NCBI RefSeq assembly: GCF_003366055.1
Contig: NZ_CP025544.1
Location: 477,278 to 541,277 of the forward strand
Origin: Candidatus Chromulinivorax destructor
GTDB taxonomy: Bacteria; Babelota; Babeliae; Babelales; Chromulinivoraceae
DNA length: 64,000 nucleotides
Direction of reading: 5' to 3'
A program made the translations under genes and the position numbers. The notes beneath the pieces were generated by a model. That model saw only the letters and a list, made by a program, of their open reading frames with translations, was not told the origin of the DNA and searched no databases. This document shows, one piece after another, positions 2,622 to 26,098 of the stretch. Position 1 is the stretch's first letter. The number at the start of each line of letters is the position of its first letter.

Positions 2622-2795
2622 ATCCTACATTTTCTACGAAAACTCCGGGAATTTGCTGACCAGTTAACCTCATGCACTATTTTTTAAACTAAAAAAGCGT
2701 AAAGTGGCCACCGCCACTCCTATTTTCGGAGAGGAGCGAAGCTATATCGTAGGTTTTTATCAACATGTAAATTTGGTTCACACAGCATAATAGTA
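2622..2795 (+). repeat. structured intergenic repeat, copy A (GC-rich core gtggccaccgccac...cggagaggagcgaagc)
   Basis: near-identical to 25878-26060 and related to 3688-3860 and inverted 21245-21425. Confidence 0.65.
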
Positions 2796-2947
2796 ACATA
2801 TCTAATTTTTATATTAAAAAGGTGAATCATTTTTTAAATTACATTCTTAATTTTTAATATAATTTTTTCTACAAAATGTATTCAATTAATCATTGATTTT
2901 ATATTTTATTTTTTAGTATTGTTAGAAATATAGAAAAAGGAATATAT

Positions 2948-3637
2948 ATGTTTCATAATCGATTAACGTACCAACAATTATCAGATTTTTTTCATTTGAC
3001 CACTTTTATAGGGTTAGTAAACCTTTTATGTAAAGTGCTGCAAATTTATTACGTTCCTGATGCTACAAGGCTGAGCATTATCATTGATAATATAAGCAAT
3101 GCTACCTTCTTTACGACAACGATTATTATTGTTGGGCTTGCTCTTAAATTTTTTCTCAAAGATTATAAAAGCTTTACAAAAAAACATAAAATTCTTGCCT
3201 TAAGTATTATGGCATGCATTGTTACGTTTATTGTATGGATTGTCATAACAAATAAAATCTTGAAATTTTACTTGTTTGCCATCAAAGATATGCATGATAA
3301 AAAAGCTGTATATCTTTTTGCTTTTATTATATGCATGCTCATTTTTGATAGTTATTATGCTTATAAAGACCATAGCAAAATAGGCGAGGCTGCTCTTATT
3401 AAAAGTATATTTAAAAGTTTTAGACTTTTACTCTATAAATATTTAGTAATAGGTCTTTCGTATGCAGGGCTTTTGCACATGACAGAATTACATAGATTTG
3501 CAGAAACAAGTGTCCCTATTATACAATATACAACGCTGTGGTTTGCATCTGTTTTAGGATTACTACTCGTATCAATTTGGACCATATATTTTTTATATTA
3601 TGTGCTAAAAAATATATTATATCATCAAGACAAATAA
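2948..3637 (+). CDS. polytopic membrane protein, unknown function (flanked by repeat copies A and B)
   Basis: ORF with SD aaaaaggaa upstream; multiple hydrophobic segments. Confidence 0.5.
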   Translation: MFHNRLTYQQLSDFFHLTTFIGLVNLLCKVLQIYYVPDATRLSIIIDNISNATFFTTTIIIVGLALKFFLKDYKSFTKKHKILALSIMACIVTFIVWIVITNKILKFYLFAIKDMHDKKAVYLFAFIICMLIFDSYYAYKDHSKIGEAALIKSIFKSFRLLLYKYLVIGLSYAGLLHMTELHRFAETSVPIIQYTTLWFASVLGLLLVSIWTIYFLYYVLKNILYHQDK

Positions 3638-3687
3638 TAAATTACCTAGATTGAGTGAATCAAATTTTTACAAGAGAGTTTTCCCCT

Positions 3688-3860
3688 CCCTTTTCTGTGA
3701 AAACTCCGCGAATTTGCTTGCCAGTGTGCCTGATGCACTATTTTTTAAACTAAAAAAGCGTAAAGTTGCAGTCGCTGCTATGCTTGCAAAGATAAGCGTA
3801 GCGATATCGCAGGCTTGTATTTTAATTTTTAAGTTTGCTTTACACAGCCTAAATAATTAA
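3688..3860 (+). repeat. structured intergenic repeat, copy B (more diverged)
   Basis: shares gaaaactccgcgaatttgct...gatgcactattttttaaactaaaaaagcgtaaagt...gcgatatcgcagg with copy A. Confidence 0.55.
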
Positions 3861-3885
3861 TGTTACTATAAAAAAGGAAAGTTAT

Positions 3886-4107
3886 ATGTTTCAAAATTCA
3901 ATAAAAAATATGAGTAATGAATCTAAAGGAATGCTTGCTTCTATTTTAGGACTGATTTTAATTTTAGGTACCCTTGGAAAATTACAAATACTGCAAAGTA
4001 TCTTAAACTCAATTATGTTGCTCACTGGTCTTGCTCTTCTCTTTTGGGGGATTAACGTCAGCAACAGTTATAAAAAAATAACAACGTATCTTCATAAGAA
4101 AAAATAA
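3886..4107 (+). CDS. small membrane protein (73 aa)
   Basis: SD aaaaaaggaaag 6 nt upstream; two hydrophobic helices. Confidence 0.4.
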   Translation: MFQNSIKNMSNESKGMLASILGLILILGTLGKLQILQSILNSIMLLTGLALLFWGINVSNSYKKITTYLHKKK

Positions 4108-4122
4108 ACTTTATCAATTTAT

Positions 4123-4167
4123 AAAAAAGGCGCTCTTGATTATGAACAATCAAGAGCGCCTTTTTTA
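4123..4167. terminator. bidirectional rho-independent terminator (ggcgctcttgat...atcaagagcgcc flanked by A/T runs)
   Basis: perfect 12-bp stem between convergent genes ending 4107 (+) and 4181 (-). Confidence 0.6.
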
Positions 4168-4180
4168 TCTCAAAATAATA

Positions 4181-7100
4181 CTATTTCATCGTAATTTGCA
4201 TAACAGGCTGAGCAACAGAAATTCCATGTGCTTTTAAGTGTATGACAATCGCTAGACGAATATCACTTGCAATTTTCCATTGATTAAGAGTATTTGTAGA
4301 ACTAATATAGCCTCGCACCATAAAGGTATATCCCTTATCGTTAAAATCATCTAAACGAATTAGTGGTTCAGGTACTTTTAATACATCATGATTTTCATCA
4401 AGCACTTGGTGTAAAATATTCTTAACTTGCTCTGGATCGCTATCAAACGGCACAGAAAAAACAATATCATCAAAAGCAATATACCCGCGAGTATAATTCC
4501 AATTATAAATAGGTGATTTTAAGATTTGTGAGTTAGGAACTACAATTGTTACTGAATTTTTTCTGCGTAAAATTACAGCACGTGGTCCGATTTTTTTTAC
4601 AACACCCAAAACATGGTCATCAATTTTAATAAAATCACCTACTTTAACTTGTCGTTGCACTAATATAAAAAAGTAAGCTACAACGTCGGCAAATAGATCT
4701 TTAAACGTCCAACCAAAAGTTACTAACCCGATCCCTAAAATATAGCCTACTAAAAAGCCTAAGCCCTCTAATTCAAGCATAATAAAAATAGTTGCGCTCA
4801 TAATAACATAACGAGAGATTGTCATAACCGTATCTTGCACACCAGGATCTACATACTGAATGTCAAATACTCTTTGTAGCACATACCGTCTAAATAAAAA
4901 TGCTAAAAAAGCACCAATTATTGGAGAAAATAATAATCGAATACAACCTGCAACTCGAATAAATTCTAATTTAGAGCCTGCAGAACCATAATAAATATGA
5001 TAATTTAAAAATTTATCTATTTGATCTAAGGCTATTGGGTAACCCCAAATTTGAGCGATTAAAAGAATTGTTAACGCTATAAATAAAAAGAATAAAATAA
5101 CAACAAATATTGCATACCATGTTTTAGCGTAATCAAATCGTTCTTTTTTGACAAATTCACCAGTATCTTTAAAAAATATCAGTGACGATATTGTTTTAAT
5201 TGCATTGTGAATCAAATACATGGTTGCAAGTAAAATAAGAGTCATGGTGATATTTAAAATCATGTACCACATTAAATGACCGTAACCTCCAAGATATGGG
5301 TCACTTAAAATCAACATAACAATGCAAAATAGTGATAAAATATAATAGTATCTATCAACTAATTTTGAAAACTCTTCAAAATATATATTTGTTTTTGGAA
5401 TTAAATTTAACAGTTCATCTTTTTCGATTGAAAAAACAACTGAAATAAAAATCACGACATGGTATAACCGAAGCAAAATAATAGGAAACTCTGACTGCTG
5501 ATACATCATGACGAGCATGAACATTTTTCTAAAAAATAAAATTGTAATAGTCGAAATTGAAAAAAATGAAAATATCCATCGAAATCGATTTTGAAACGAT
5601 TCGCCCAAAAGTAAATATCCAATAGATTTATTAAAATCTAATAGATAAACCAAAAATGATCGTGATAAATAGGTTAAAAGGACAATAGAAAATGCATAAA
5701 ACATCAAAACAAAGACGATCGAGTAATGACAAATACTCAATGACATAAAGAGTAAAATCCATATATAAATCAACCCTAAATATTCTTGTATAAATCCACA
5801 CAGAACAGCGAACATTCTACTCAATAAAAAAATGTTATGCATGTCTGGACTGATCTGCATAAATGAATTATATAAAGCAGGAAGCATAATTAAAAGACAC
5901 AAATAAATAATATAGAGAAAGATACCAAGTAATATATAGGTAAAAAACTGTGATGTAGAGGTTGTAATAAAATTATAAGCATCATCAAAGAAATTGAAAT
6001 GAATGATATAATCTTGCACCATTCCGTAAATATTATGAACAAAGGTAATGAGATTTGGAATAATTTCTTTAATCCCATTGAGCGTAACTGCACGGTTTGA
6101 TCGATGCCAAACGCCAATTAAATCAAGCTCTTGTAGCATAAAATTCGTCAGGATCAGCGATTCTTCTTTCAACTCAATTAACGATGCATACTGCTCACTT
6201 AATTTAAGATAGACATCTGCCTGGCGCTCAACAGCTTTTAATGATTTTGTTAGTAAAGTTATACTTTCATTATACTTTCTTTGATTTTCAGCAATATCAT
6301 TTGATGGATACGACTTTAATCGTTCTTGATATTTTTTTATATTTTGTAATTTTTTATGCTGAGATTTTATTAACATATGCAATTCGCCTGTGCGATCTTG
6401 ATATGATTTAATCATATTTTGTATAGAATTTTTCGTATCTTTATAATGATTACGTAAGGTTTCTAAATGATCATTATCATGAAATTTAGATTGAGTAATT
6501 GCATACAAAGACTGGACTGCATCTTCTAATGCTTGCGCATGAAATATTTTTGCATCTTGCATCAACAATTCAATACGAATTTTTTCAATTTTTTGATCAA
6601 TAAAAGCTACATTTAAATATGCTAATGAAACAGAAATTGCTTGGAAGTCTTCTTGAATTGTATCAAATGAAACATCCCAATCTTCTACTTGACGAATGTT
6701 GGATAATGAAATTTTATAACGATCACTTAATTTTTCAAGCTCTTCTTGCATGTAAGATTTTTGATTTGCTAGATCAGTTCGATCTTTCATTAAATTAATT
6801 TTACTTGCTTGAACTTCTGACTTTATTTCATTATTTTTTTGCTGATAAAATAACACATCCTGTTTATCAACTTTCATGCGACGTCGAACTTGCACTAAAC
6901 TTGCTTCTAGTTTAATTTTTTTCTGCGCAGTAACAAACATCTGGGATGTTATAAATTCAACGCTTCTGACATGCTCTTCAACACGTAAAGCATCTAATTC
7001 ACGTTCTTGCATCAGCACTTCTTTTTCAAGATTGTATAATGCTACCTGATTTTTGACATCAGCATGATTTGATTTTTTTAATGATTCTATGTAATCATTA

Positions 7101-7726
7101 ATAGCTTTTATTTCTTTATCTTTTGTTGTAATAAAATTTTCAGAACGAGCAACAACCGATTCTTCATTTTCTTTTTTAATTTGTAAACGAGATAAAGCTT
7201 CTTGCTCAAGCATAATTTTATGAGTTAAAATCTGTAAATCAGAAAATGCATATAAAGATTTTTCTTCTATCTCATCATTTGGCTCATCAAGAGATTGAAA
7301 ATATTTATCAAGATATTCAATGTGCTGTTTCATATATTCAGCTATTTGCTGACGAGTTTCACGAACATCAGGAAGAAGTTGATATTTATTATTTAATAAA
7401 TTAAGTTTTTTTGATAAATATTCATTATTCCCATTGGCAGGAGTTGTCTTTAAATTATCTATCTCTTTTTTTACCAAAATCATCTGCTTTTCGATTGCAT
7501 CTGATTGTAACTTTGATTTTTCAAGTAATGCTTTATATTCAACTTTTAACGTTTCAAGCATATTTTGTTTTTGGGCTGCATCTTCACCAATAAAAAACTT
7601 TAGGCCAGTATTTGGCATAACTGAATCTTTTAAAGCATCAAAACCAACAGGTTGCAAATGAAGTGCAAATCCAGAAACAGAACTCATCAACAAACAGAAT
7701 AATGCTTTATGCATATATTTTTTCAT
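4181..7726 (-). CDS. MscK/KefA-like mechanosensitive channel: signal peptide, ~550 aa periplasmic coiled-coil, ~11 TM helices, C-terminal MscS domain
   Basis: C-terminal MscS beta-domain motif GDFIKIDDHVLGVVKKIGPRAVILRRKNSVTIVVPNSQI; long heptad-rich N-terminus; many TM segments. Confidence 0.7.
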   Translation of the reverse strand: MKKYMHKALFCLLMSSVSGFALHLQPVGFDALKDSVMPNTGLKFFIGEDAAQKQNMLETLKVEYKALLEKSKLQSDAIEKQMILVKKEIDNLKTTPANGNNEYLSKKLNLLNNKYQLLPDVRETRQQIAEYMKQHIEYLDKYFQSLDEPNDEIEEKSLYAFSDLQILTHKIMLEQEALSRLQIKKENEESVVARSENFITTKDKEIKAINDYIESLKKSNHADVKNQVALYNLEKEVLMQERELDALRVEEHVRSVEFITSQMFVTAQKKIKLEASLVQVRRRMKVDKQDVLFYQQKNNEIKSEVQASKINLMKDRTDLANQKSYMQEELEKLSDRYKISLSNIRQVEDWDVSFDTIQEDFQAISVSLAYLNVAFIDQKIEKIRIELLMQDAKIFHAQALEDAVQSLYAITQSKFHDNDHLETLRNHYKDTKNSIQNMIKSYQDRTGELHMLIKSQHKKLQNIKKYQERLKSYPSNDIAENQRKYNESITLLTKSLKAVERQADVYLKLSEQYASLIELKEESLILTNFMLQELDLIGVWHRSNRAVTLNGIKEIIPNLITFVHNIYGMVQDYIIHFNFFDDAYNFITTSTSQFFTYILLGIFLYIIYLCLLIMLPALYNSFMQISPDMHNIFLLSRMFAVLCGFIQEYLGLIYIWILLFMSLSICHYSIVFVLMFYAFSIVLLTYLSRSFLVYLLDFNKSIGYLLLGESFQNRFRWIFSFFSISTITILFFRKMFMLVMMYQQSEFPIILLRLYHVVIFISVVFSIEKDELLNLIPKTNIYFEEFSKLVDRYYYILSLFCIVMLILSDPYLGGYGHLMWYMILNITMTLILLATMYLIHNAIKTISSLIFFKDTGEFVKKERFDYAKTWYAIFVVILFFLFIALTILLIAQIWGYPIALDQIDKFLNYHIYYGSAGSKLEFIRVAGCIRLLFSPIIGAFLAFLFRRYVLQRVFDIQYVDPGVQDTVMTISRYVIMSATIFIMLELEGLGFLVGYILGIGLVTFGWTFKDLFADVVAYFFILVQRQVKVGDFIKIDDHVLGVVKKIGPRAVILRRKNSVTIVVPNSQILKSPIYNWNYTRGYIAFDDIVFSVPFDSDPEQVKNILHQVLDENHDVLKVPEPLIRLDDFNDKGYTFMVRGYISSTNTLNQWKIASDIRLAIVIHLKAHGISVAQPVMQITMK

Positions 7727-7982
7727 AACAATCCTTACTCACTACTCTTCAATTTTTTTATGTATAATGAACAACAACTATAACGAGCATACTATGATGC
7801 TTCATGCGATGCATGGTATTTATTGTCATAGCGTATCTTGCTACTATAATACAAGAATTATTATGGTAAATAATACATATATTTACCATAAGTTGCGACC
7901 TTAATATTTTAAATTTTAACAGACGCTTTATACATGAGCTTGTGCGAATTAAATTTTATAGAGATTGTTCTGGCCTACGTTT

Positions 7983-8510: not shown

Positions 8511-8618
8511 GATAAAAATATTTGTTGTTATGATTGTACAATTTTAGCATAATCGGTACTATTACAAAAATATAATTTTAAAATTAAAATAATCACACTG
8601 TATGGAAGGTAAATTGGT

Positions 8619-8915: not shown

Positions 8916-9130
8916 AACTTTACAATAGTTAATTTTGTAAAAGCTTTTGTCAAAAATCTCTGGCACCATTTCTATAATTGAAAAGTTTTGAATATAATAA
9001 ATTTACAAACATCACTATTAATTCATTTCGATAGCAAATAATAGATTTTAATTAGTAAAATAGGTATTCTAAAAGAAACATAATTTTTTAGAGTACCTAG
9101 AATTTTTATCAAATAAGGAAAACTTAGACG

Positions 9131-10936
9131 ATGGATCAATCAAAGATACGTAACGTTGCTATTATAGCACACGTTGATCACGGTAAAACAACTATGGTTG
9201 ACGAAATATTCAAGCAAAGTGATTCTATGCAAGCGCATCATGTTATTGAAGAGCGTTTGATGGATTCAATTGATCTTGAAAAAGAGCGTGGAATTACCAT
9301 TAAATCAAAAAATGGTTCTTGCATGTACAAAGACTATTTTATTAACATCATCGACACACCTGGTCACGCTGACTTTGGTGGAGAAGTTGAACGCGTGCTT
9401 AAAATGGCTGACGGTGTTCTTTTCCTTGTTGATGCTGCAGAAGGCCCAATGCCTCAGTCTTTCTTCGTATTGAAAAAAGCTGTTGCATTAAACTTACCTG
9501 TAGTTGTTGTTGTAAACAAAATCGACAAAGAAACAGCTCGTATTGAATGGGTTATTGACCAAGTTTTCGATCTTCTTGTAGGTCTTAATGCTCCTGATGA
9601 AATCTTAGATTTCAAAGTTGTATACGCATCAGCAAGAAACGGTTGGGCAACAACTGACTATAACGTTAAAACTGATAACATCAAAGCTATTTTTGAAGCG
9701 ATTGTAAACTACATCCCTGCACCTAAAGGTGACCCAAACGGTCCTTTCCAAATGCTTGTAAGTTCAATTGATCATTCAGCTTTCATGGGTCGTTTAGCAA
9801 TTGGTAAAGTTACTTCTGGTTCAATAGCTTTAGCTAACAGCGTAGTTGCTGCATCAGAAAACTTTATGAGTCAGCCTATCCGTGTAACAAAATTATACAG
9901 ATTTGAACGTAATAAACATATGGAAATCGAAACAGCTTCAGTTGGTGAAATCATCGCTGTTGCAGGTTTTAAAGATATTTTAGTAGGTCAAACTGTTACG
10001 AGTGCATCAAACCCAATTCCACTACCTTCATTCAAAATTGATCCACCAACAGTTGCTATTAAATTCTTACCAAACGACTCTCCATTGTCAGGTCAAGAAG
10101 GCGATTTCATTACAAGTCGTCAATTGCATGATCGTTTACACCGTGAACCACTTTCAGACATTGCTATGCAAGTTGAAGATGATGGTATCGGATTTAAAGT
10201 TTCTGGCCGTGGCGAATTACATCTTTCAATCTTTATTGAAAAATTACGTCGTGAAGGTTATGAATTCCAAGTATCTCGTCCTGAAGTAGTTTTCCAAGTT
10301 ATTGATGGCAAAAAAATGGAACCGTACGAAACGGTAACTATCGACGTTGCAACTCAATACATTGGTAAAATTATTGAAGCTATGGGTACACGTAAAGGTC
10401 AAATGACTGATATGAGAGAAGATGGTCCTATGACTCGTCTTATCTATGAAATCCCAACTCGTGGTATTTTAGGATACCAAGCTGACTTCATGATGGATAC
10501 TAAAGGTATGGGTATCATGAGTTCTGCTTTTGACAAATACGGTCCATACATTGGTGAAATCAGACTTCGTCAAAATGGTGTGATGATTGCTATGGAAAGT
10601 GGCAAAACAACTTCATACGCACTTGAAGGTCTTGAAGACCGTGGTGTATTGATTATGGGTTCTGGCCAAACTGTGTACGAAGGTCAAATCGTTGGTAAAC
10701 ATTCACGCGATAACGACTTAACAGTTAATGCTTGTAAAGGCAAAAAACTAACGAACATGCGTGCATCTGGTTCTGATGATTCAACAGCATTACAACCGCA
10801 TCTACAAATGACGTTAGAACAATGTCTATCGTTCATTATGGATGATGAGTTGATCGAATTCACTCCAAAATCAATTCGCTTAAGAAAAATGATTTTAAAC
10901 GAAGGTGAACGTAAACGTAGTGGTAAAAAAAGCTAA
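9131..10936 (+). CDS. typA: translational GTPase TypA/BipA
   Basis: G-domain motifs AHVDHGKTT, DTPGHADF, NKID; EF-G-like domains; C-terminal BipA-type domain. Confidence 0.9.
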   Translation: MDQSKIRNVAIIAHVDHGKTTMVDEIFKQSDSMQAHHVIEERLMDSIDLEKERGITIKSKNGSCMYKDYFINIIDTPGHADFGGEVERVLKMADGVLFLVDAAEGPMPQSFFVLKKAVALNLPVVVVVNKIDKETARIEWVIDQVFDLLVGLNAPDEILDFKVVYASARNGWATTDYNVKTDNIKAIFEAIVNYIPAPKGDPNGPFQMLVSSIDHSAFMGRLAIGKVTSGSIALANSVVAASENFMSQPIRVTKLYRFERNKHMEIETASVGEIIAVAGFKDILVGQTVTSASNPIPLPSFKIDPPTVAIKFLPNDSPLSGQEGDFITSRQLHDRLHREPLSDIAMQVEDDGIGFKVSGRGELHLSIFIEKLRREGYEFQVSRPEVVFQVIDGKKMEPYETVTIDVATQYIGKIIEAMGTRKGQMTDMREDGPMTRLIYEIPTRGILGYQADFMMDTKGMGIMSSAFDKYGPYIGEIRLRQNGVMIAMESGKTTSYALEGLEDRGVLIMGSGQTVYEGQIVGKHSRDNDLTVNACKGKKLTNMRASGSDDSTALQPHLQMTLEQCLSFIMDDELIEFTPKSIRLRKMILNEGERKRSGKKS

Positions 10937-10997
10937 ACTTTACCGTTTAATTTTTGATCAAATACAAAAGAAGGGAATCTTTACAGATTCCCTTCTT
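10720..10997 (+). repeat. direct repeat 1 (278 bp): last ~217 nt of typA plus its terminator
   Basis: near-identical copy at 11675-11952 (a handful of substitutions plus a loop flip). Confidence 0.85.
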
Positions 10998-11674: not shown

Positions 11675-11952
11675 AACAGTTAATGCTTGTAAAGGCAAAA
11701 AACTAACGAACATGCGTGCATCTGGTTCTAATGATTCAACAGCATTGCAACCGCATCTACAAATGACGTTAGAACAATGTCTATCGTTCATTATGGATGA
11801 TGAGTTGATCGAATTCACTCCAAAATCAATTCGCTTAAGAAAAATGATTCTTAACGAAGGTGAACGTAAACGTAGTGGTAAAAAAAGCTAAACTTTACCG
11901 TTTAATTTTTGATCAAATACAAAAGAAGGGAATCTGTAAAGATTCCCTTCTT
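11675..11952 (+). repeat. direct repeat 2 (278 bp): copy of typA 3' end plus terminator
   Basis: see 10720-10997; hairpin loop reads tgtaaa (reverse complement of tttaca in copy 1). Confidence 0.85.
11676..11891 (+). pseudogene. TypA C-terminal gene fragment (72 codons in frame, no SD or start of its own)
   Basis: translates to NACKGKKLTNMRASGS(N)DSTALQPHLQMTLEQCLSFIMDDELIEFTPKSIRLRKMILNEGERKRSGKKS, identical to the typA C-terminus except D->N. Confidence 0.7.
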
Positions 11953-13554: not shown

Positions 13555-14391
13555 ATGTTCTCTCGTAAAAAATTTTTTATACTTCTTATCATATTTACCC
13601 ATATAAACTTATTAGCACAAAGATCAAAAAAAGATCATACGATAACGGTATTTGTCCATGAAACATTTCCTATGCGCAGGCTTTTGCACCATACCCCAGC
13701 AAAATCACTTCTGTATACAGAGCAAGGGCTTTGCTTGGCAAAAAATCTTCCAAATCATTACCATTTTTATAAAATAGCTCAGGGATGCATAAAACTTAAT
13801 AGCCATGATTATGGCTGGGATAGATTTTACATCTTTGGGTGGAAATCTGAAAAAATATTAAATAGCTCCAGAAAAAATGCTGCCAAAGATTTAGTTACTG
13901 CTCTTGCACAAGTTGTTGATAGTTATTACATCCAACATGGAGTTCACCCTTCTATTCGACTTATTGGCTTTTCACATGGTGGCAATGTTGTTTTACACAC
14001 AGCAAATTACTTACCTTTAGTGCATAATACAATACCAATAGATGTCCAAGCATGGATTTTTGGGACTCCTATACAGCAAGCTAACCACGATTGCGTTAAT
14101 CAAGGAAAATTTACACAATGTTATTCATTTTATTCAGAAAAAGATTGGATTCAACGAATTGATCCTCAAGGTCTTTGTAATAAAAAAATAAGAAAAGATC
14201 ATTTTTGGTCTGATAGAACTTTTGATAAAGATGCATCATGCATTCAAGTGAAATTTACCGTCAATGATAAATCGATCAGTCACATCTATTATCGCAGTGT
14301 ATTTAAATATTTTCCGATTATTGAACAGATCACTCAATCACAATCAGATGGTTTACAATCAGGTATGATAGCAGTTGATGTAAAAATTTAA
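13555..14391 (+). CDS. secreted alpha/beta-hydrolase (lipase/esterase-like), paralog 1
   Basis: signal peptide; VFVHETFP oxyanion-type motif; GxSxG = GFSHGG; ~65-70% identical to 15219-16073 over the C-terminal half. Confidence 0.6.
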   Translation: MFSRKKFFILLIIFTHINLLAQRSKKDHTITVFVHETFPMRRLLHHTPAKSLLYTEQGLCLAKNLPNHYHFYKIAQGCIKLNSHDYGWDRFYIFGWKSEKILNSSRKNAAKDLVTALAQVVDSYYIQHGVHPSIRLIGFSHGGNVVLHTANYLPLVHNTIPIDVQAWIFGTPIQQANHDCVNQGKFTQCYSFYSEKDWIQRIDPQGLCNKKIRKDHFWSDRTFDKDASCIQVKFTVNDKSISHIYYRSVFKYFPIIEQITQSQSDGLQSGMIAVDVKI

Positions 14392-15218: not shown

Positions 15219-16073
15219 ATGAAAGGTAATCATCTCATAATGAAAAAATATTTTGTCATATTACTATCATGTATTTTCAATATCTCTCTATCAGCTTTGC
15301 AACAAACAACAGCTGATCATGCTATTACGGTTTTTGTCCATGGCACGTACCCAATTCCTAAAATTTTACGCAATTCTCCTTTTCGTAAATTAATGTATTG
15401 CCCACAAGGCCTCTCACTAGCAAAAAAACTGCCTGCAGATTATCATTTCCATACCATTGCACAAGGATGCGTTGATCTTAATCCTTCATTGTATTCACTT
15501 GATCAATTTTATGTTTTTGGATGGCCTTCAGAAAAAATTTATGACAGCGTTAGACAACAAGCAGCATCTGACCTTGCCAACGCTCTGAAAACAACTGTTA
15601 CAAACTACTATGCTCAACATGGAATACAACCAAAAATACGATTAATTGGATTTTCTCATGGAGGAAATGTGGTCTTAAATACTGCAAATTTCTTAACTCA
15701 ATTAGTACAAGAACAAAAAATCACCACTGAAATTTGGATTTTTGGAACACCGGTACAACAGATTAACCATAATTTGATACAGAGTAAGAATTTTCATAAA
15801 GTGTACTCAATTTTTTCTCAAACTGATTGGCTTCAACGAATGGATCCGCAAGGATTATATAACAAAGATATACGACATGAATATTTTTGGTCTGACCGAA
15901 TGTTTGATAAAGATGCATCGTGCATTCAAATAAATTTCACGGTCAATAACAAATCAATTAGCCATAGTTATTACCGCCATATTTTTAAATATTTTCCTAT
16001 AATTCAAAAATCTATTGAAAATCAATCTCAAGATTTGCAATCAGGCATAATAAGCGTAGATTTAAAAATCTAA
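15219..16073 (+). CDS. secreted alpha/beta-hydrolase (lipase/esterase-like), paralog 2
   Basis: VFVHGTYP, GFSHGG; C-terminus FWSDRMFDKDASCIQINFTVNNKSISHSYYRHIFKYFPII nearly identical to paralog 1. Confidence 0.6.
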   Translation: MKGNHLIMKKYFVILLSCIFNISLSALQQTTADHAITVFVHGTYPIPKILRNSPFRKLMYCPQGLSLAKKLPADYHFHTIAQGCVDLNPSLYSLDQFYVFGWPSEKIYDSVRQQAASDLANALKTTVTNYYAQHGIQPKIRLIGFSHGGNVVLNTANFLTQLVQEQKITTEIWIFGTPVQQINHNLIQSKNFHKVYSIFSQTDWLQRMDPQGLYNKDIRHEYFWSDRMFDKDASCIQINFTVNNKSISHSYYRHIFKYFPIIQKSIENQSQDLQSGIISVDLKI

Positions 16074-16078
16074 AAATT

Positions 16079-18194: not shown

Positions 18195-18837
18195 TTTTTT
18201 ATCCTTACTATTAAAACATACATTCTAGCAATTCGATATCATATATATTTTTAAAAATACAGCTTAAAAACTAATAAAAGTCTTTATTTTTGCTTTAAAA
18301 ATATTAGGCACAGCGTATCATAACTCCATTGATTATCTCAATAATTTTCAAACTCGATTTCTAAAATTTCAAACTGGATTAATATATAAATCTCATCATG
18401 TCTTTGCGCAAGAGAACAATATCAATGATTTTATAATTTTTCTTGCAATATTACCCAAAATAAAAATATTATAATAATAAGAAAAAAGAATACAAAGTAA
18501 TAAGGAAAATCTATATGAAAACCAAAATTATTTTGTATACAAGTTGAATTAAAATCACTAAAAAAGAGGATATAAGGGGCACGCAATGACAATCAAATTA
18601 ACACTACTCATAAAACTATTATTAACTACATCAATCTGCTATGTCATTGAAAAACAGTTTCATGAGAGCCCCCAAGAAAAAACTCTTCATCAAATTCAAA
18701 AAAAGCTATCTGCATAGGTTATGTTGATTTTTAATGTAACTTTAAAATCATTTTCGATTCACCTCCTGAATCGTCATGACAGCGGGAACTATTCGTTTTT
18801 TAAAAAAATTAAGCGATTGACCCCCACTGGGGTCTCA

Positions 18838-18915
18838 TTTTCCTGAGTTTTGTAAAAAACGTAGGATGTTGTAACTTTTTTCAAAAACTCAAGGGAACCT
18901 CATCTGCAAGCTTTT
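18838..18915. repeat. fragment of the structured repeat family (an inverted terminal-repeat-like end followed by an element 5' end)
   Basis: gttttgtaaaaaacgtaggatg resembles the reverse complement of the element start; ...caaaaactcaagggaacctcatctgcaagc resembles the element 5' region. Confidence 0.3.
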
Positions 18916-18999
18916 AAAATATTCTCTATTTTCTTGCATTTATATGTCTCTACAATTTATGATGCAACTATATTATTTTCTTAAAAAAGGAATGTTGTT

Positions 19000-20409: not shown

Positions 20410-20618
20410 ACATTAATCTTTTTCTAAAAAATAAGCCGCTATATTTTCATAGCGGCTTATTTTTATTTATTCTCGATACAACTGATCAGATCTTATCTCT
20501 CATAAAATAGAGCTTTTTTATCCATACTTTTTTGATAAATATACCTTTTTGTTTTCTATGTTTCACATTATAATATTTACAATATTACTATTCGTTTCAA
20601 ACCAAAAAGGATTCCTCT

Positions 20619-21176: not shown

Positions 21177-21244
21177 TTTCTAACATAAATTTTATGTTTT
21201 TAGGGGCGTACAACTTGAATGTTGTACGCCGCTTTTTTTATAAT

Positions 21245-21425
21245 GCTAGCTAAACTGGGTAAACCAAATTTTAAAATTAAAATAAAAGCCTTCGATATCG
21301 CTGCGCTCATCTCCGGAAACAGTGGTGGCGGCGGCCACTATACGCTTTTTTAATTCAAAAAAAGAGTGCATCAGGCCCATGGGCATCCAGATCTCCAAAG
21401 TTTTTATAAAAAACATAGGGTTATG
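21245..21425 (-). repeat. structured intergenic repeat, copy D (inverted orientation)
   Basis: its reverse complement reads ccctatgttttttataaaaac...gggcctgatgcactc...aaaaaagcgtatagtggccgccgccaccactgtttccggagatgagcgcagcgatatcgaagg, matching copy C. Confidence 0.65.
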
Positions 21426-21448
21426 AAAAAGACCTGATCTACTATTTT

Positions 21449-23419
21449 TTATAATTTAGATTTAAGTAATTGCCACTGCTGACGCAAGGCAATTGCCGTT
21501 TCAAAATCTAATTTTTGAGCTGCTTGCTGCATTGCAATTTCAAGCTCAACAATCTGATACTGCATTTCTTGTGCCGTTAACTTAATCTCTTTTTTAGCCT
21601 GTTTTTGTAAATACTTTGATGACTTAGCAATATCTGCAGATAATGACGAAATCGAAGTTGTTACATCACGAATAACTGTTGTCGGTATAATTCCATGTTC
21701 TTGGTTATATGTATCTTGAATTTCGCGTCGACGCGCTGTCTCTTTGATTGCAAAATCCATCGATGGCGTAACTTTATCTGCGTATAGGCGAACAATACTT
21801 TCGGTGTTTCGCGCTGCTCGACCTATAATCTGAATCAATGATCGACGATCTCGCAAGAAGCCTTCTATGTCAGCATCCATAACAGCAACAAAAGCTACTT
21901 CTGGTAAATCTAAACCTTCCCGTAATAAATTAACACCCACAAGGCAGTCAAAAATGCCAAGTCGAAGTTTTTGTAGCAAATCAGTTCTCTGCGGAGTTTT
22001 TAAATCACAATGCAAATAACAAACTTTAATCTGCTTTTCTTCAAGAAAAAATGCTAACTCTTCAGCCATTTTTTTGGTTAACACCGTAACAAGTGTTCGA
22101 AAACCTTTGGCGCTTGTTGCATTAATTTGCTCAACCAAGTTTTGTATCTGATTGGTTCGTGAATGCAAATCTATAATTGGATCAAGCAAACCAGTTGGAC
22201 GAATAATTTGTTCAACAATTTGAGCACTATGCTCAGCTTCATATTTACCAGGGGTTGCAGAAACATAGATAACATTTTTTAAAAAACGTTCAGATTCTTC
22301 AAACTTTAAAGGCCTATTATCATACGCCGATGGTAAACGAAAGCCAAAATCAATTAATGATTTTTTACGAGCTTTATCACCCTTGTACATTGCGCCCATT
22401 TGGGGTATAGCAATATGAGATTCATCAATAACTAATAAAAATCCATCTTCATTAAAGAAATCAAATAAACAGTACGGTGCTTGACCAGATACTCGACCAT
22501 CAAAATGGGTTGAATAATTTTCAATACCCGGACATGTACCTGTCTGCTCAAGCATCTCGATATCATAAGCAACACGCTGCTGTATGCGGTCGGCATACTG
22601 TTGATTTTCTAAGGTTGCAACATACTCTTGTAATTCTTGTTTGATTGACGTAATTGCTGTTCGTTTTTTAGCTTCTGTGGTAACAAAGTTTTTTGCAGGA
22701 AAAATAACTTCTTGGTCGACAAGATTCAAAACATTATTATTAATTTTATCAATCCAAGAAATAGATTCTATTTCATCACCAAAAAGCTCAATTCGTAACT
22801 TTTTTTTCTTTTGATACGGAACATGAATCTCGATGCTATTGCCATACACCTGAAATGTCCCACTTCGTTTATCAACTTCGTTCCGAGTGTAAAGGATTGA
22901 TAACAATTTATTGATAAGCTCTTTGCGACCTATTTTAACACCCACCGATAAAGATATTGCCATTTCTTTAAAATCTTGAGGATTACCTAAAGAATAAATA
23001 CAAGAAATTGATGCAATAATAATAACATCTTTTCTTTGCATAATACTTGCTGCAGCTTCAACACGAAGACGTTCTATCTCGTCATTAATTTTTGTTTCTT
23101 TAGCTATATAAATGTCTTGCGCAGGGAGATATGACTCTGGTTGATAATAATCATAATAACTGACAAAATAACAAACTTTATTTTCTGGAAAAAACAGAGA
23201 AAATTCTTCATACAATTGCCCTGCAAGCGTTTTATTTGGTGATAAAACAATCACAGGTTTATCTTGCGCGGCAATCACGTTTGCAATGGTAAAAGTTTTA
23301 CCTGACCCGGTTACTCCAAGTAATGTTGATGGTTTACCAAGTCCTTGTTGTAATTTTTCAATAGCTGCTGGTTGATCGCCTGATGGTTGAAATGGAAGAT
23401 GCAATTTAAAAACACTCAT
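21449..23419 (-). CDS. uvrB: excinuclease ABC subunit B
   Basis: Walker A GVTGSGKTFTIANVI; helicase motifs; C-terminal UvrB/UvrC interaction helix (AIALRQQWQLL). Confidence 0.9.
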   Translation of the reverse strand: MSVFKLHLPFQPSGDQPAAIEKLQQGLGKPSTLLGVTGSGKTFTIANVIAAQDKPVIVLSPNKTLAGQLYEEFSLFFPENKVCYFVSYYDYYQPESYLPAQDIYIAKETKINDEIERLRVEAAASIMQRKDVIIIASISCIYSLGNPQDFKEMAISLSVGVKIGRKELINKLLSILYTRNEVDKRSGTFQVYGNSIEIHVPYQKKKKLRIELFGDEIESISWIDKINNNVLNLVDQEVIFPAKNFVTTEAKKRTAITSIKQELQEYVATLENQQYADRIQQRVAYDIEMLEQTGTCPGIENYSTHFDGRVSGQAPYCLFDFFNEDGFLLVIDESHIAIPQMGAMYKGDKARKKSLIDFGFRLPSAYDNRPLKFEESERFLKNVIYVSATPGKYEAEHSAQIVEQIIRPTGLLDPIIDLHSRTNQIQNLVEQINATSAKGFRTLVTVLTKKMAEELAFFLEEKQIKVCYLHCDLKTPQRTDLLQKLRLGIFDCLVGVNLLREGLDLPEVAFVAVMDADIEGFLRDRRSLIQIIGRAARNTESIVRLYADKVTPSMDFAIKETARRREIQDTYNQEHGIIPTTVIRDVTTSISSLSADIAKSSKYLQKQAKKEIKLTAQEMQYQIVELEIAMQQAAQKLDFETAIALRQQWQLLKSKL

Positions 23420-23579
23420 ACAAAAATCCTATTTTAAATTTCGCTTTATACATGCTGTAACTAGATGTCATCATATTTTTTCACATCATAGCTTATATCA
23501 ATTTTTATAGAGCAAAGTTATGAAAATCCAATGTAAAAGCTTCCTACAAAACTTTAATTATATACCTTTATAAAATTTA

Positions 23580-24056
23580 TCATGAAGTTTTCTTCTCAAA
23601 TAAAATGTGTATAGATCTATGAACACCAGCTAAGATTCTTTGTAATTTCTCGCGCTCTTTTTTTTCTTCTTCTGGATTAAACATTCCATACATACGTAGA
23701 TCAGCTGTGGTATACTTTTTACGATAAGTCAAAATTGGCTTATAAAAATTCAAATCCCAATCATCAGAAGAATTACGCTGCATTTTTTCAGGAACAAGAA
23801 CATCTCTATACGAATAAATAGCTACACCTGTCCAATCAACAACTTTAAAATCTAAAGGGTCTTGTGAATAAGAATCAGTTGTATGATCCGCGCATGAATC
23901 ATTAGTTGCAATGCTTCTGACGGTATAACCAGCATCTAAATTTGATACTTTTTTATGAAGAGCTACAACAGGAACTTTAACATGTATTTTATTTTCATGC
24001 ATGCTAACGACATACATATGCAAAAATACAAGGCTACAAAAAATTATTTTTTTCAT
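23580..24056 (-). CDS. secreted protein (158 aa), unknown
   Basis: signal peptide MKKIIFCSLVFLHMYVVSM. Confidence 0.45.
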   Translation of the reverse strand: MKKIIFCSLVFLHMYVVSMHENKIHVKVPVVALHKKVSNLDAGYTVRSIATNDSCADHTTDSYSQDPLDFKVVDWTGVAIYSYRDVLVPEKMQRNSSDDWDLNFYKPILTYRKKYTTADLRMYGMFNPEEEKKEREKLQRILAGVHRSIHILFEKKTS

Positions 24057-24172
24057 TTTCCATCCTTACCTAAAAGTTATTAATTCCTTACCAGAAATAA
24101 TAACGATTATTCTTTTACTATATTTCATATCGTTATCACTTTGCTTTTTATCTGATAACATAGGTAACTATT

Positions 24173-25231
24173 TTATTTTTTACGACGTCTTTGACGACGA
24201 GTTTTTTGAGTAGGCTTAGAATCTTTAACTGACTGATCCCATCGCACAGACTTACTGGAATTGCTATGCGCTGAAATATCAGAATTATTTCGACATTCTA
24301 TTGCTCTTGCCAATCTTTGAACAAGTTTCTTTTTTTCATATTCTAAATTTTTATCTATAGCAATTAACTCATTATTTAATTTTGCAATAGTACTGGAATA
24401 GCGATATTCAGATGACAAAAATATAAGCTTATCTACAACATCTAAACTCATACCTTCATGAAAAGTAAATTTATTAACAAAAGAAGGAATAACTGAAGAA
24501 CATAAAGCACTTGCTGGTACACTTTCTTTTGATCTATCAGATAGATCTATTTCTTGATGTACCATCAAACCTTCATCAATAAAATAATTTTGCAAATCAG
24601 CCAATAATTTTGAAGTCATATCATTGTTATCAGAATCATCTTCAAATGCATCTGATTGATCATCAAGCTTAAAAGGTGGTAGGAGTTGATTACATTCTGG
24701 ATATAATGTATTACGATTTCTTCTATCAGTTCTATCTTGCAGCAACTTCCAATACAACTGACCTGCTTGTTGATTATTTTTATTAAATGGATTGAGATAT
24801 AAAAGAATATTTTTTTTACGCAGTATATATTTTTGACGATCTTCATCTAATGCTTTTTGTAATTTGCCATTTTTACAATCTAAAAGTTTTTCTTGTTGCA
24901 ATATCATTGCTACTGATGCATAGGCAAATTCTTCTTTATTTCCCACCGCATGATGTAATGCGCTCACGGCAGATACTTGTTTACCAGAAGTTACAACTTC
25001 AACTAAATATTCTAAATCTTGTGTAGAAAATCGATCATACAAAAGCTCTTGAAATAGTTTTCCAGTTTTATCAAAATTTTTGGCCGTACAAGCATGCTGC
25101 TGTAAGTTTTCAATAAGATTTTCTGGAGGACAAACTGCAAACGTATAATCTAAGAGTAAAGGCCGTTGCAATTCCATTGAACACATCAAAGCAGGCGAAC
25201 AAATCAAAATATAAAATAGTATTTTTTTCAT
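24173..25231 (-). CDS. secreted protein (352 aa) with C-terminal arginine-rich tail KTRRQRRRKK
   Basis: signal peptide MKKILFYILICSPALMCSM; acidic central region; basic Tat-like tail. Confidence 0.5.
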   Translation of the reverse strand: MKKILFYILICSPALMCSMELQRPLLLDYTFAVCPPENLIENLQQHACTAKNFDKTGKLFQELLYDRFSTQDLEYLVEVVTSGKQVSAVSALHHAVGNKEEFAYASVAMILQQEKLLDCKNGKLQKALDEDRQKYILRKKNILLYLNPFNKNNQQAGQLYWKLLQDRTDRRNRNTLYPECNQLLPPFKLDDQSDAFEDDSDNNDMTSKLLADLQNYFIDEGLMVHQEIDLSDRSKESVPASALCSSVIPSFVNKFTFHEGMSLDVVDKLIFLSSEYRYSSTIAKLNNELIAIDKNLEYEKKKLVQRLARAIECRNNSDISAHSNSSKSVRWDQSVKDSKPTQKTRRQRRRKK

Positions 25232-25243
25232 ATAACAATAACT

Positions 25244-25747
25244 TTATTTACGATAACCACTGTAACTATTATATGATGCATGATTTTTATATACATCTTG
25301 TTGCATAATATCAAGTTGGTTATGAGATTTTTTAGTAGATTTATGATTATCATCAAGTATGATTTCGTGATAATTTTTACGCTTGCAACTATACGCCGAT
25401 GTTACCATAACTGCTTCTCTGTTACTTGTAACATGCATAGTATCTTTATGTTCAGTATCTTTTTTAAAACTTGGAACAGTCAATTTTTTTCTGTCTGCTA
25501 TTTCTTCTAATGTTATTCCCAAACCTGAAGAGCCACGTAAACTTAACTGCGATGAACTTGTTTGCTTGCTACCTAATAACTCAAAAGACATGCTTTCATC
25601 AAAATACAATCCAAGCTCATGAGCTGATGAATCAGAATCATAATTCACATTTTCAAAAGATACCGATGATAGCTCTGCTGCAAAGCTTATGTTTGATGAA
25701 AAAATAACTATCAACAAAAGAATCATTTTACAAACCACCATATGCAC
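25244..25747 (-). CDS. secreted protein (167 aa), unknown
   Basis: signal peptide; first gene of a 3-gene same-strand run ending at uvrB. Confidence 0.45.
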   Translation of the reverse strand: MHMVVCKMILLLIVIFSSNISFAAELSSVSFENVNYDSDSSAHELGLYFDESMSFELLGSKQTSSSQLSLRGSSGLGITLEEIADRKKLTVPSFKKDTEHKDTMHVTSNREAVMVTSAYSCKRKNYHEIILDDNHKSTKKSHNQLDIMQQDVYKNHASYNSYSGYRK

Positions 25748-25877
25748 AACCTTATAATAATCTATTTGAAATATTGAGAAAACATGAGACTGCTTGCAAC
25801 AAATTTAAAATAAGCATACTAATCTAGAATACAGCTCTGCTTATGTTTAAAAACAGCGCAGCGGCTATTCTAAAAAT

Positions 25878-26098
25878 TTACCCTACGTTTTCTACAAAAA
25901 CTCAGGGAATTTGCTGGCCGGTGGGCCTCATGCACTATTTATTTACATAAAAAAAGCGTAACGTGGCCGCCGCCACCACTGTTTCCGGAGATGAGCGAAG
26001 CGATATCGTAGGTTTTTGTGCACATGTAAATTTGGTTTACATAGCATAGGGTAACCTGCTTGCAAACCCCAAGACTTTTTATAAAAAACGCAGGACTA
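25878..26098 (+). repeat. structured intergenic repeat, copy C, with ~20-bp imperfect terminal inverted repeats
   Basis: 5' end ccctacgttttctacaaaaac vs 3' end gtttttataaaaaacgcagg (reverse complement cctgcgttttttataaaaac); GC-rich core gtggccgccgccaccactgtttccggagatgagcgaagcgatatcg. Confidence 0.7.

Follow-up and report, generated by a model that had tools for sequence, protein, structure and literature searches.

A structured intergenic repeat in Candidatus Chromulinivorax destructor with a conserved multi-hairpin fold, most likely a small selfish mobile element

The DNA analyzed for repeat copies is a 64-kb stretch (hereafter the window) of the 1.17-Mb genome of Candidatus Chromulinivorax destructor (Dependentiae), a parasite of protists. 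A covariance model (CM) detects five copies of an intergenic repeat in it, together with partial arms (Table 1). Copy A adjoins a divergent 465-aa M41-like gene on one side and a 229-aa gene on the other, copy B is placed between 229-aa and 73-aa genes, copy C lies on the uvrB strand between the uvrB stop codon and a pre-existing bidirectional terminator, and copy D is antisense to both of its neighbors, downstream of the conserved promoter-like stretch of a 167-aa gene. Copy A has a degenerate P4 hairpin (helix names are given below), a lineage-specific left arm (about 2583-2622), a 3' extension to about 2795 and an outer inverted repeat, AACCAAATTT/AAATTTGGTT. Copy B, whose 3' extension runs to about 3860, is partly decayed, with mismatches in P1, P3, P4 and P6, and copy F retains its 5' arm and P4 hairpin (GACCCC-AGT-GGGGTC) with P6 and the 3' motif decayed. 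The partial 5' arm stands head-to-head with copy F; the truncated copy stands tail-to-tail with copy D, whose 3' extension reaches about 26043. The remnant on the other side of copy D corresponds, with similarity judged by eye, to an intact copy in a 98% strain (L030:55-189).

Table 1. Copies and partial copies of the repeat in the window.
Feature	Position	Strand	Evidence
Copy A core	2623-2757	+	CM 98.5 bits
Copy B core	3684-3817	+	CM 88.4 bits
Copy F, complete but degenerate	18735-18866	-	CM 48.5 bits
Partial 5' arm (…TTTTTTCAAAAACTCAAGGGAA…)	18868-18915	+	Direct sequence reading; CM 16 bits in overlapping stretch
Whole inserted segment around copy C, about 200 bp	21245-21444	-	Flanking direct repeats
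Copy C core	21285-21420	-	CM 109.6 bits
Remnant of another copy (its 3' part with extension)	25787-25866	-	Weak, E about 1e-3
Copy D core	25881-26016	+	CM 116.8 bits, best-preserved of the window
Truncated inverted copy, 5' half only	26044-26115	-	nhmmer model 5-77, E 5.5e-5

The four main copies score 88-117 bits with covariance model R1 (E 1e-21 to 3e-29), and 414 kb of unrelated metagenomic DNA gave zero further matches to it; the repeat is therefore far beyond chance. A sequence-only reading of this DNA had placed four copies at 2622-2795, 3688-3860, 21245-21425 and 25878-26098, and all are present by sequence, by nhmmer (E-values 1e-57 to 8e-63) and by CM. The unit of ~170-220 bp that it described is a genuine repeat but not of that length, since the core shared across species is ~130-136 nt and the rest is lineage-specific extension, giving about 200-230 bp with such arms; the ~40-nt 3' extension (AAATTTGGTTYACACAGCNTAG) was found only in the C. 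destructor lineage. What had been taken for a fragment at 18838-18915 is there in sequence but consists of the 5' end of the complete, degenerate copy F plus the abutting partial arm. Similarly, ~20-bp terminal inverted repeats do exist at the 25878-26098 copy but are not a family-wide feature: the right one (26073-26098) belongs to the truncated inverted copy at 26044-26115, as its 5' arm, and is not a family terminus. The earlier description of a GC-rich core with internal palindromes was confirmed (about 45-50% G+C in the core, about 31% in the surroundings), and a multi-copy, non-coding, structured and intergenic family is supported.

Beyond the window, a metagenome scan recovered about 60 non-redundant further copies on about 40 metagenome/Logan contigs of Chromulinivorax-like bacteria. 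Across these copies similarity has sharp limits, CCCTACG at the start and CGTAGG at the end, which enclose a conserved unit of ~130 nt. This core reads CCCTACG-GTTTTC.TAC.GAAAAC-CTCCGGGAA ... AGGCC.GGCG.GGCCT ... CGCTTTTT/AAAAAGCG ... GTGGC.CGCC.GCCAC ... TTTCCGGAG-ATGAAGCGATAGCGAAAT-CGTAGG; the 3' stretch GGAGATG..AGCGAAATCGTAGG is nearly invariant. Within the core, the 5' arm repeats the 3' arm imperfectly and in inverted orientation. The outer arms beyond CCCTACG and CGTAGG vary among sub-lineages, and their inversion is significant in copies A and F alone, whose score was reached by 3/200 shuffles, compared with 23-77/200 for copies B, C and D. One locus, L068, has up to 13 CM matches on both strands, at roughly 8 distinct sites, in 10 kb. 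Phage and plasmid records contain no match to the repeat, and Rfam 15 returned zero matches for the window at gathering thresholds, for the copies within 2550-3900 at E<=10, and for 10 loci with canonical copies at E<=5. The repeat is not confined to the window copies, and the match to a known Rfam or IS family that the sequence-only reading had named as speaking against a novel element was not encountered.

As a single strand, the repeat is predicted to fold into two long-range helices, P1 and P3, enclosing three or four local hairpins (Pa, P4, P5 and P6), and compensatory changes support the two long-range helices and three hairpins. In a MAFFT alignment of 28 copies, paired cells amount to 86%, compared with 29-53% when partners are slid; double-sided changes number 47, compared with 17+-3 in shuffles (0/500 reach 47), and Pa, P4 and P6 each show several Watson-Crick pair types. 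Pairing and compensatory change were found again with 62 copies, bearing out the pairing-preserving differences hinted at earlier. The divergent L068 copies preserve P3 via CUCCGGCGA/UCGCCGGAG, and Pa and P4 with other sequences. On the + strand of the long-range helices, G.U outnumbers A.C by 110 to 32 cells among the 62 copies (cells, not independent events), a bias that is absent from the local hairpins. Hairpins of variable length are inserted at fixed places in L125, L132, L086 and L054, and in L052 and L055. The best-conserved part of the repeat comprises the internal core and a stretch drawn unpaired, rather than the termini; such internal conservation is unusual for a miniature inverted-repeat element (MITE) and typical of functional RNA.

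Copies of the repeat are gained, lost and flipped among strains that differ by 2-5% in protein sequence. Copy C is missing in L024, L026 and L028 (88-93% UvrB identity), which have about 65 bp instead, with the empty site AAATTATAAAAAAA and the terminator directly after it. In the window, the inserted segment is flanked by an 11-bp direct repeat, TTTTTTATAAT (ATTATAAAAAA on the element strand; 21234-21244 and 21445-21455), and comparison with the empty sites of relatives identifies it as duplicated empty-site sequence. In a 97% strain (L029) the repeat has the opposite orientation at the site of copy C and apparently also at that of copy D, of which the start of the contig shows just the 3' extension. 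Copies A and B are missing at the syntenic place in L138 (95% MscS identity) and L139 (81%), both of which have a 239/241-aa gene in place of copy B, and L138 carries a copy at a place that is empty in the window. In addition, the contigs of close strains end inside repeat copies, partial, nested, head-to-head and tandem copies all occur, and the 3' module with the P6 hairpin forms core-only tandem arrays in L068.

The repeat is thus small (<300 bp), non-coding and multi-copy, like a MITE, and its presence at orthologous sites is polymorphic (copies A, B and C and the extra L138 copy). It lacks the fixed-length target-site duplication of a MITE: direct repeats of 21, 15 and 14 bp flank copies in L125, L035 and L086, respectively, flanking duplications range over 8-21 bp, and the majority of copies are at background level. 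This variability does not fit a classical DDE transposase of fixed stagger, and an HUH/Y1 enzyme, which makes no duplication, fits no better. No mobilizing enzyme was found in the 64 kb of the 1.17-Mb genome that was covered. The earlier statement that the window encodes no transposase holds for the 25 Pfam families (of its 83) that were listed, which also include no RAYT, and no recurrent protein family, transposase or RAYT occurs among the neighboring ORFs (169 ORFs at 37 loci) or beside about 40 related loci; transposases go unmentioned in the C. destructor genome paper.

Taken together, the conserved multi-hairpin fold and the gain and loss of copies between close strains indicate that this undescribed, intergenic, ~130-base repeat is not a gene but most likely a selfish mobile element of small size. 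On balance, we favor reading it as a family of structured, non-autonomous repeats of the MITE/REP/BOX type that is new and specific to the lineage of Chromulinivorax-like Dependentiae, and we think it probably belongs to the same class as MITEs, REP/REPIN, BOX, Correia and Rickettsia palindromic elements. Further support for a selfish rather than genic nature comes from the placement of copies, all of them intergenic (0/48 lie within ORFs), in both orientations and closer to gene 3' ends (median 53 nt) than to 5' ends (119 nt; p=0.003), and from the partial and nested copies, the lack of a recurrent neighboring protein family and of a conserved promoter, and the neutral drift of one orthologous pair (figures below). 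The sequence-only reading had left the choice between a MITE-like element and a structured RNA gene; the polymorphism and the 11-bp duplication uphold mobility, and the RNA-gene option is weakened.

That option would make the copies paralogous small structured RNA genes, each with a transcript of its own and a trans-acting role such as that of a regulatory or protein-binding sRNA, in which the invariant GGAGAUG..AGCGAAAUCGUAGG stretch would be the functional site. The compensatory changes in a multi-helix fold, the hairpins of variable length at fixed places, which resemble the variable arms of RNAs, the segment drawn unpaired yet nearly invariant, the one-strand excess of G.U over A.C in P1 and P3, and the T-rich stretch after the closing stem are all in line with this, and the window encodes two RRM-domain proteins. 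However, the 60 nt that precede the repeat contain no conserved promoter in an alignment of 33 copies, with information content <=0.28 bit at each position bar the last four, and the copies have neither the fixed-distance promoter nor the conserved position among relatives of an independent sRNA gene, with gain, loss and inversion breaking synteny between strains at 95-98% protein identity. Moreover, copy C and its ortholog L030b share 74.8% identity, compared with 73.8% at uvrB fourfold sites (one pair, 111 nt), and this pair drifts at the neutral rate; copies B, F and L030a are visibly decayed. Partial arms and core-only tandem arrays, single-sequence folding z-scores that are modest and alike on both strands, and the lack of a preferred orientation to neighbors (11 sense, 11 antisense, 6 convergent and 4 divergent) likewise argue against RNA genes, which we consider unlikely.

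An origin as a mobile element followed by retention for cis effects on transcripts, with copies acting as bidirectional terminators or 3'-end stabilizers of neighboring genes, would parallel roles proposed for REP, BOX, ERIC and Correia elements. Half of the copy-facing gene 3' ends, but 4/39 of the 5' ends, are within 50 nt of a copy. The palindromic layout folds stably in both orientations; in antisense, copies A, C and D present the P6 hairpin, then ACGC and T6-7, an arrangement that scores terminator-like (shuffles of the region give 0.2-0.7 such sites), and the sense strand has a mirror arrangement of P4, then AATTCGC and T5. The T-runs, however, begin 4-7 nt past the stems, a spacing ill suited to intrinsic termination, and proximity to 3' ends is equally explained if insertions are tolerated there or if they target A/T tracts next to terminators. 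Copy C precedes an intact, older terminator that relatives use without the element, and it is therefore dispensable there; the neutral drift of that orthologous copy (one pair, 111 nt) also argues against retention. Unbiased orientations do not match the layout of a cis-regulatory leader, sense and upstream of the regulated gene. Retention for terminator or stabilizer effects in cis seems improbable to us.

Descent from, and movement by, an IS630/Tc1-mariner-type transposase as a classical MITE is very unlikely: an IS630-type transposase pseudogene in L026 (88% UvrB identity; HTH_Tnp_IS630 and DDE_3, positions 14-906) does stop 48 bp short of a degenerate copy (954-1081), but its left IS end is cut off where the contig ends, no such transposase occurs among those 25 listed Pfam families of the window (of 83) or beside any other of the ~40 loci, the conserved part of the repeat is internal and not terminal, and copy C has junctions AAAAAA/TAG...CTAG/CATTAT with the 11-bp duplication in place of the expected TA.

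Known repeats and a small-RNA family offer several parallels to the Chromulinivorax repeat. BOX elements of Streptococcus pneumoniae (boxA-boxB(n)-boxC) are likewise modular, intergenic, present in many copies and without an encoded protein; their outer modules pair into a stable stem-loop, the middle varies in length, and partial or rearranged versions occur. In the Chromulinivorax repeat, in contrast, it is the 3' module, containing the P6 hairpin, that is invariant; its host is a Dependentiae parasite of protists, and the sequences are not known to be related. Rickettsia palindromic elements are similar in being palindromic repeats of about 100-150 bp in the reduced genome of an obligate intracellular bacterium, with conserved secondary structure, no known transposase, and lineage-specific spread and decay, but they often lie in frame within coding genes, unlike the Chromulinivorax copies; we know of no sequence similarity between the two. 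The REP/BIME/REPIN elements associated with RAYT (Y1 HUH) share conserved hairpins, two inverted arms, a location at gene 3' ends and a GTAG-containing motif, which the Chromulinivorax repeat carries inverted at both termini, starting with CCTACG and ending with CGTAGG. They differ as single palindromes of 20-40 nt rather than a multi-branched unit of about 130 nt with five helices, and HUH enzymes make none of the flanking duplications seen at some Chromulinivorax copies. Correia (NEMIS) elements of Neisseria, RUP, ERIC and Nezha are also non-coding intergenic repeats (100-250 bp) in both orientations, with insertion polymorphism among strains and possible promoter or terminator side effects, but their hallmarks are terminal inverted repeats that are conserved and a short duplication of fixed length (TA in Correia and RUP), unlike the Chromulinivorax repeat, with termini that vary by sub-lineage beyond CCCTACG/CGTAGG and duplications that are long and variable. 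Bartonella Brt1-9 sRNAs are several structured intergenic paralogs of about 150-200 nt in an intracellular bacterium. Brt genes carry a promoter and a terminator of their own and lie upstream of a fixed partner gene; Chromulinivorax copies have no conserved promoter, fixed neighbor or conserved position.

For a mobile element of this kind, the fold and the 3' motif may be conserved family-wide because a trans-acting mobilizing enzyme encoded elsewhere in the genome needs to recognize them, and their conservation would then not reflect a cellular function of each copy. The enzyme would probably recognize single-stranded nucleic acid, ssDNA or RNA, given that the covarying parts are local hairpins and not simple terminal repeats; single-strand recognition as in the REP/RAYT system would explain these covarying hairpins. 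Side effects on transcripts, through termination and 3'-end stability, and on genome rearrangement would be likely.

All four copies of the intergenic repeat described in the sequence-only reading are present in the window and clearly related, and an nhmmer profile built from them matches at E 1e-57 to 8e-63. A fifth, degenerate copy (F), scored with R1, a covariance model of the repeat core, is also matched, more weakly, by this profile (~18750-18870), and reverse-strand echoes in the same scan arise because the repeat is itself an imperfect palindrome. The right terminal inverted repeat formerly read at copy D is an arm of a truncated inverted half-copy. Copies are confined to the first 26 kb of the window and have a G+C content of 41-48%, compared with 29-38% for the window; copies B and F and the copy L030a from a close strain are visibly decayed. 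Scaling up from the window and four unselected relative loci predicts roughly 60-80 copies in the complete 1.17-Mb chromosome. No tRNA or Rfam family was found above threshold anywhere in the window.

Coordinates of repeat copies and other features in the window
Feature	Coordinates	Strand	R1 (bits)	Remark
Copy A	2623-2757	+	98	
Copy B	3684-3817	+	88	
Copy C	21285-21420	-	110	
Copy D	25881-26016	+	117	
Copy F	18735-18866	-	48	degenerate
Partial 5' arm	~18868-18915			head-to-head with copy F
Truncated inverted half-copy	26044-26115			tail-to-tail with copy D
Remnant of repeat	25787-25866			found by nhmmer
uvrB	21449-23419			
ATTATAAAAAA	21445-21455 and 21234-21244			both sides of insert with copy C
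Antisense terminator-like site, copy A	2701-2720			
Antisense terminator-like site, copy C	21322-21341			
Antisense terminator-like site, copy D	25958-25976			
465-aa ORF	1141-2538	-		
Place of L138 copy	8916-9130			no copy in window
leuS-uvrB interval	23580-25747			
278-bp direct repeat	10720-10997 and 11675-11952			
RRM_1 genes	29510-29845 and 30841-31074			probable, by synteny with L024:3082-3315 and 4297-4614
Three small ORFs	36101-37521			
Paralogous gene pair	13555-14391 and 15219-16073			entry spans 14053-16076
Gene with internal duplication	51342-52517			

Alignment of 28 full-length members revealed sharp edges of similarity, starting with CCCTACG and ending with CGTAGG, and a core consensus of CCCTACGTTTTCTACGAAAACTCCGGGAATCTTGAGGCCGGCGGGCCTAATTCGCTTTTTAAAAAGCGTTTAGTGGCCGCCGCCACCATGTTTCCGGAGATGAAGCGATAGCGAAATCGTAGG. 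The 3' extension AAATTTGGTTYACACAGCNTAG noted earlier is limited to the C. destructor lineage; it is carried by copies A-D and by the close strains L029 (97%) and L030 (98%), with an altered form upstream of a partial copy in L138, a relative with 95% MscS identity. Outer arms differ in other sub-lineages, for example YTGTATTAATYCRTTTTYAAAATG, and some members have extra hairpins inserted at two fixed places. Lenient blastn searches of the flanks did not locate outer boundaries, the alignments running on through AT-rich DNA. Units consisting of the core alone occur at the divergent locus L068, some of them in a tandem array of 3.6 copies with a period of 100. In this array (contig Ga0222654_1000057, 35-394; 3.6 units of 100 bp) the unit comprises only the 3' module (A-run, P6 hairpin, CCGGAGAT..AGCGAAGTCGTAGG) and a 35-nt spacer, and one or two more copies occupy most intergenic regions of the next 7 kb.

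A first pattern scan (ATGCACTNTTTN{5,14}AAAAAGCGTA) of a species-level genome collection, outside which the window's species falls, returned chance matches only. Recurrent matches in a Saprospiraceae MAG were rejected as family members, as they belong to another palindromic repeat whose resemblance in a short motif is due to chance. That unrelated repeat (L004, L008, L013, L019, L020; MAG-358, JAEUUP01) has at least five copies in one MAG; it starts with ACTGATGTTACGCA, ends with TGCGTAACATCAGT and forms a long hairpin at its centre, GACCGAAGTTNATTTTTCAATCGC..GCGATTGAAAAATNAACTTCGGTC. Conserved blocks of the family were picked out from contigs with close UvrB homologues, and a metagenome collection scanned with the 3'-block pattern GGAGANGN{0,1}AGCN{2,3}AGCNANATCGNAG yielded 105 loci, ~40 of which hold true members by nhmmer and covariance model; the remaining 68 loci (414 kb), serving as a negative control, gave no R1 match except a duplicate of L026. 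L068, among the most divergent carriers, has a gene for a trigger factor that shows 77% identity to a counterpart labelled Candidatus Chromulinivorax sp., and the family therefore spans Chromulinivorax-like bacteria. Nothing similar was found in phage, plasmid and viral-contig collections beyond one chance pattern match of 12 bits, and no Rfam 15 model matches canonical copies even at E<=5.

The UvrB encoded in the window is 100% identical to that of Ca. Chromulinivorax destructor, which parasitises the chrysophyte Spumella. This species belongs to the Dependentiae (TM6), a large phylum of small-genomed intracellular parasites with almost no cultured members. In the literature that we searched, neither an interspersed repeat family nor a mobile non-coding element is described for this phylum. 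The C. destructor genome paper reports 98 ankyrin-repeat proteins, in line with ankyrin-repeat Pfam matches in three window ORFs, and nowhere mentions transposases, mobile elements or intergenic repeats (PMC6561590).

RNAalifold, run on a gappy MAFFT alignment, predicted the hairpin Pa and no other helix; six helices were therefore specified by hand from the alignment and tested with shuffle and slide controls: P1 (CCTAC/GTAGG), Pa (GTTTTC/GAAAAC), P3 (TCCGGGAA/TTTCCGGA), P4 (AGGCC/GGCCT), P5 (CGC/GCG) and P6 (GTGGC/GCCAC). In the MAFFT alignment, made without reference to structure, standard pairs occupy 86% of cells, compared with 29-53% after the 3' partners have been shifted by 1-3 columns, and double-sided changes occur in 47 cells, compared with 17±3 in shuffles, none of 500 reaching 47. 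Several Watson-Crick pair types are found in each of Pa, P4 and P6, variation in P1 and P3 is mostly through wobble pairs, and support for P5 is weak. Across 62 copies, in a model-made alignment that leans towards structure, pairing is 93% for Pa, 91% for P6, 89% for P4, 85% for P1 and 80% for P3. Moreover, the divergent L068 copies keep P3 as CUCCGGCGA/UCGCCGGAG, and Pa and P4 with other sequences.

P4 may alternatively pair with P6 in a long hairpin, which single-sequence folding often draws; compensatory changes nevertheless fall within each hairpin, and it is thus the local hairpins P4 and P6 that are maintained. Single-sequence folding is not discriminating, with z-scores of +0.2 to -3.9 on the plus strand and similar values on the minus strand. 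To gauge which strand is under selection, G.U pairs were set against A.C mismatches; the ratio is 66 to 38 in total, or 43 to 38 without one conserved wobble column, and about equal by column type; on the plus strand of P1 and P3 the 62 copies give 110 against 32, counted as cells rather than independent events, whereas the hairpins show no such excess. A hammerhead-like reading of GAUGA...GAAA was rejected, as the core C3 and U4 are absent by eye and Rfam is silent too, and an attC/integron-like reading was rejected on account of mixed orientations and no integrase being seen.

None of 48 surveyed copies lies inside an ORF, and orientation relative to neighbouring genes is mixed (11 sense to both, 11 antisense to both, six between convergent and four between divergent genes). 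Copies lie nearer to gene 3' ends, with a median distance of 53 nt and 20/40 within 50 nt, compared with 119 nt and 4/39 for 5' ends (Mann-Whitney p=0.003). The 60 nt upstream of copies hold no position-specific signal, and the first 6 nt downstream are T-rich. Clustering of 169 ORFs from 37 carrier loci gave no protein family in more than two loci, and the 25 Pfam families listed, of 83 for the 66 ORFs of the window, include nothing transposase-like. The sole transposase seen is an IS630-type pseudogene adjoining a degenerate copy in L026; a link to IS630 fails the TA test. This transposase, at the contig end in L026 (contig ERZ27247432 k141_1198946, 14-906) and L027 (1-108), is split in L026 into two ORFs (HTH_Tnp_IS630, 131 aa; DDE_3, 171 aa) with the degenerate copy 48 bp downstream, which shows that Chromulinivorax relatives do carry insertion sequences. 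Within the element, the antisense strand of three copies has terminator-like sites, the P6 hairpin followed by ACGC and T6-7, and the sense strand has the mirror layout (P4, AATTCGC, T5), so that the element's centre resembles two convergent terminators with common A/T runs.

Comparison of close strains documents gain, loss and inversion of copies. In relatives with 88-93% UvrB identity, uvrB is followed within ~65 bp by a bidirectional terminator and then a convergent gene, whereas in the window a 200-bp segment with copy C stands between the uvrB stop codon and this terminator; ATTATAAAAAA, single in the empty sites, is found on both sides of the insert. Copy C is present in the same orientation in the 98% strain (L030/L031) and inverted at the same spot in the 97% strain (L029), whose contig also starts inside the 3' extension at the copy D site, pointing opposite to D, so that this copy appears to be inverted too. 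Copies A and B are missing from L138, which shares its sample of origin with L029, and also from L139 (81% MscS identity). A 239/241-aa gene takes the place of copy B in both, and copy A sits in a window-specific block with a 465-aa M41-like gene that has only a partial Peptidase_M41 (FtsH-like) match. Since L138 and L139 lack this ORF at the corresponding position, a 182-aa gene there directly preceding a 229-aa gene, it is a strain-specific insertion, and copy A lies at its edge. L138, for its part, starts within a copy beside a 99-aa gene where the window has none. Contigs from close strains break off within copies, the usual outcome for a multi-copy repeat. Flanking direct repeats of greater length are seen in L125 (21 bp), L035 (15 bp) and L086 (14 bp), each exceeding the shuffle maxima; most other copies have nothing above background.

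The number of genes in the leuS-uvrB interval, and their sizes, change with every relative (window, 167+352+158 aa; L024, 159+234; L026, 379+211+373; L028, 173+197), and in the window this block is bracketed by the inverted copies D and C (138 nt, 83% complementary); it may be a recombination hot spot. Elsewhere in the window, the 3' end of the BipA/TypA gene is present twice, along with its perfect palindromic terminator (AAGAAGGGAATCT..AGATTCCCTTCTT) and with two BipA_C Pfam matches, as a direct repeat of 278 bp (98% identical, 955 bp apart). The repeat flanks a 187-aa minus-strand ORF, and the arrangement resembles a recent insertion or duplication event that left a very long target duplication. 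Two small RRM_1 (eukaryote-type RNA recognition motif) proteins encoded near leuS are conserved in relatives. Three adjacent small ORFs (107, 136 and 146 aa) have a common repeated start region (ribosome-binding site and first codons), indicating a tandem paralogue family; a further paralogous gene pair matches over 273 nt at 74%, and another gene has an internal 552-bp duplication (300 nt at 87%).

For one orthologous copy, identity between the window and L030 is 74.8% in the element (111 nt), 73.8% at uvrB fourfold sites and 75% in the spacer, so that this copy, taken whole, drifts roughly neutrally. In its P6 stem, GTGGC/GCCAC has nevertheless become ACGGC/GCCGT; this double compensatory change may equally be conversion from another copy, as the same variant is found elsewhere (L065, L093).

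Collectively, five observations fit a mobile repeat that is selfish and non-autonomous: copies are rapidly gained, lost and inverted; an insertion duplicated its target; individual copies decay neutrally; promoter, fixed neighbour and orientation bias are all absent; and fragments, nested copies and tandem copies occur. A multi-copy small RNA is a less probable alternative, favoured by the conserved internal motif and the variable inserted hairpins, although the context and turnover data speak against it. Exaptation of copies as terminators or 3'-end stabilisers is likewise less probable; it would suit their position near gene ends and the terminator-like motifs inside the element, yet copy C stands before an older, sufficient terminator. 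As for the selfish mobile repeat, its target duplications lack the fixed length that a strict definition of MITEs demands, and their variability fits neither a fixed-stagger DDE enzyme nor an HUH enzyme. Conservation in such a family would mirror what being copied requires, and the covariation of local hairpins, rather than plain terminal repeats, suggests that a folded single strand is what is recognised.

We consider it improbable that the core is specifically the structured substrate of an undescribed Dependentiae mobilisation route with a single-stranded RNA or DNA intermediate, of which SINE-like copying through RNA with variable-length target duplications would be an example, or else a functional multi-copy RNA bound via its invariant 3' motif. 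If true, either reading would explain why an internal five-helix fold and an unpaired motif, not the termini, are conserved across the genus, why G.U pairs build up on a single strand of the long-range helices P1 and P3, and why the length of flanking duplications ranges between 8 and 21 bp.

By description of layout and behaviour, rather than by sequence tests, the nearest known families are pneumococcal BOX, Rickettsia palindromic elements, REP/REPIN and Correia-type MITEs, and the support for the fold is unusually good for an element of this kind. The repeat breaks short-read assemblies and so matters for binning and genome comparison in this group, and its copies mark places where close strains have rapidly gained and lost genes, including the leuS-uvrB block and the lost 239-aa gene. 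If transcribed or moved as a single strand, it would provide a handle on an undescribed mobilisation system, together with a ready covariance model for annotating these genomes.
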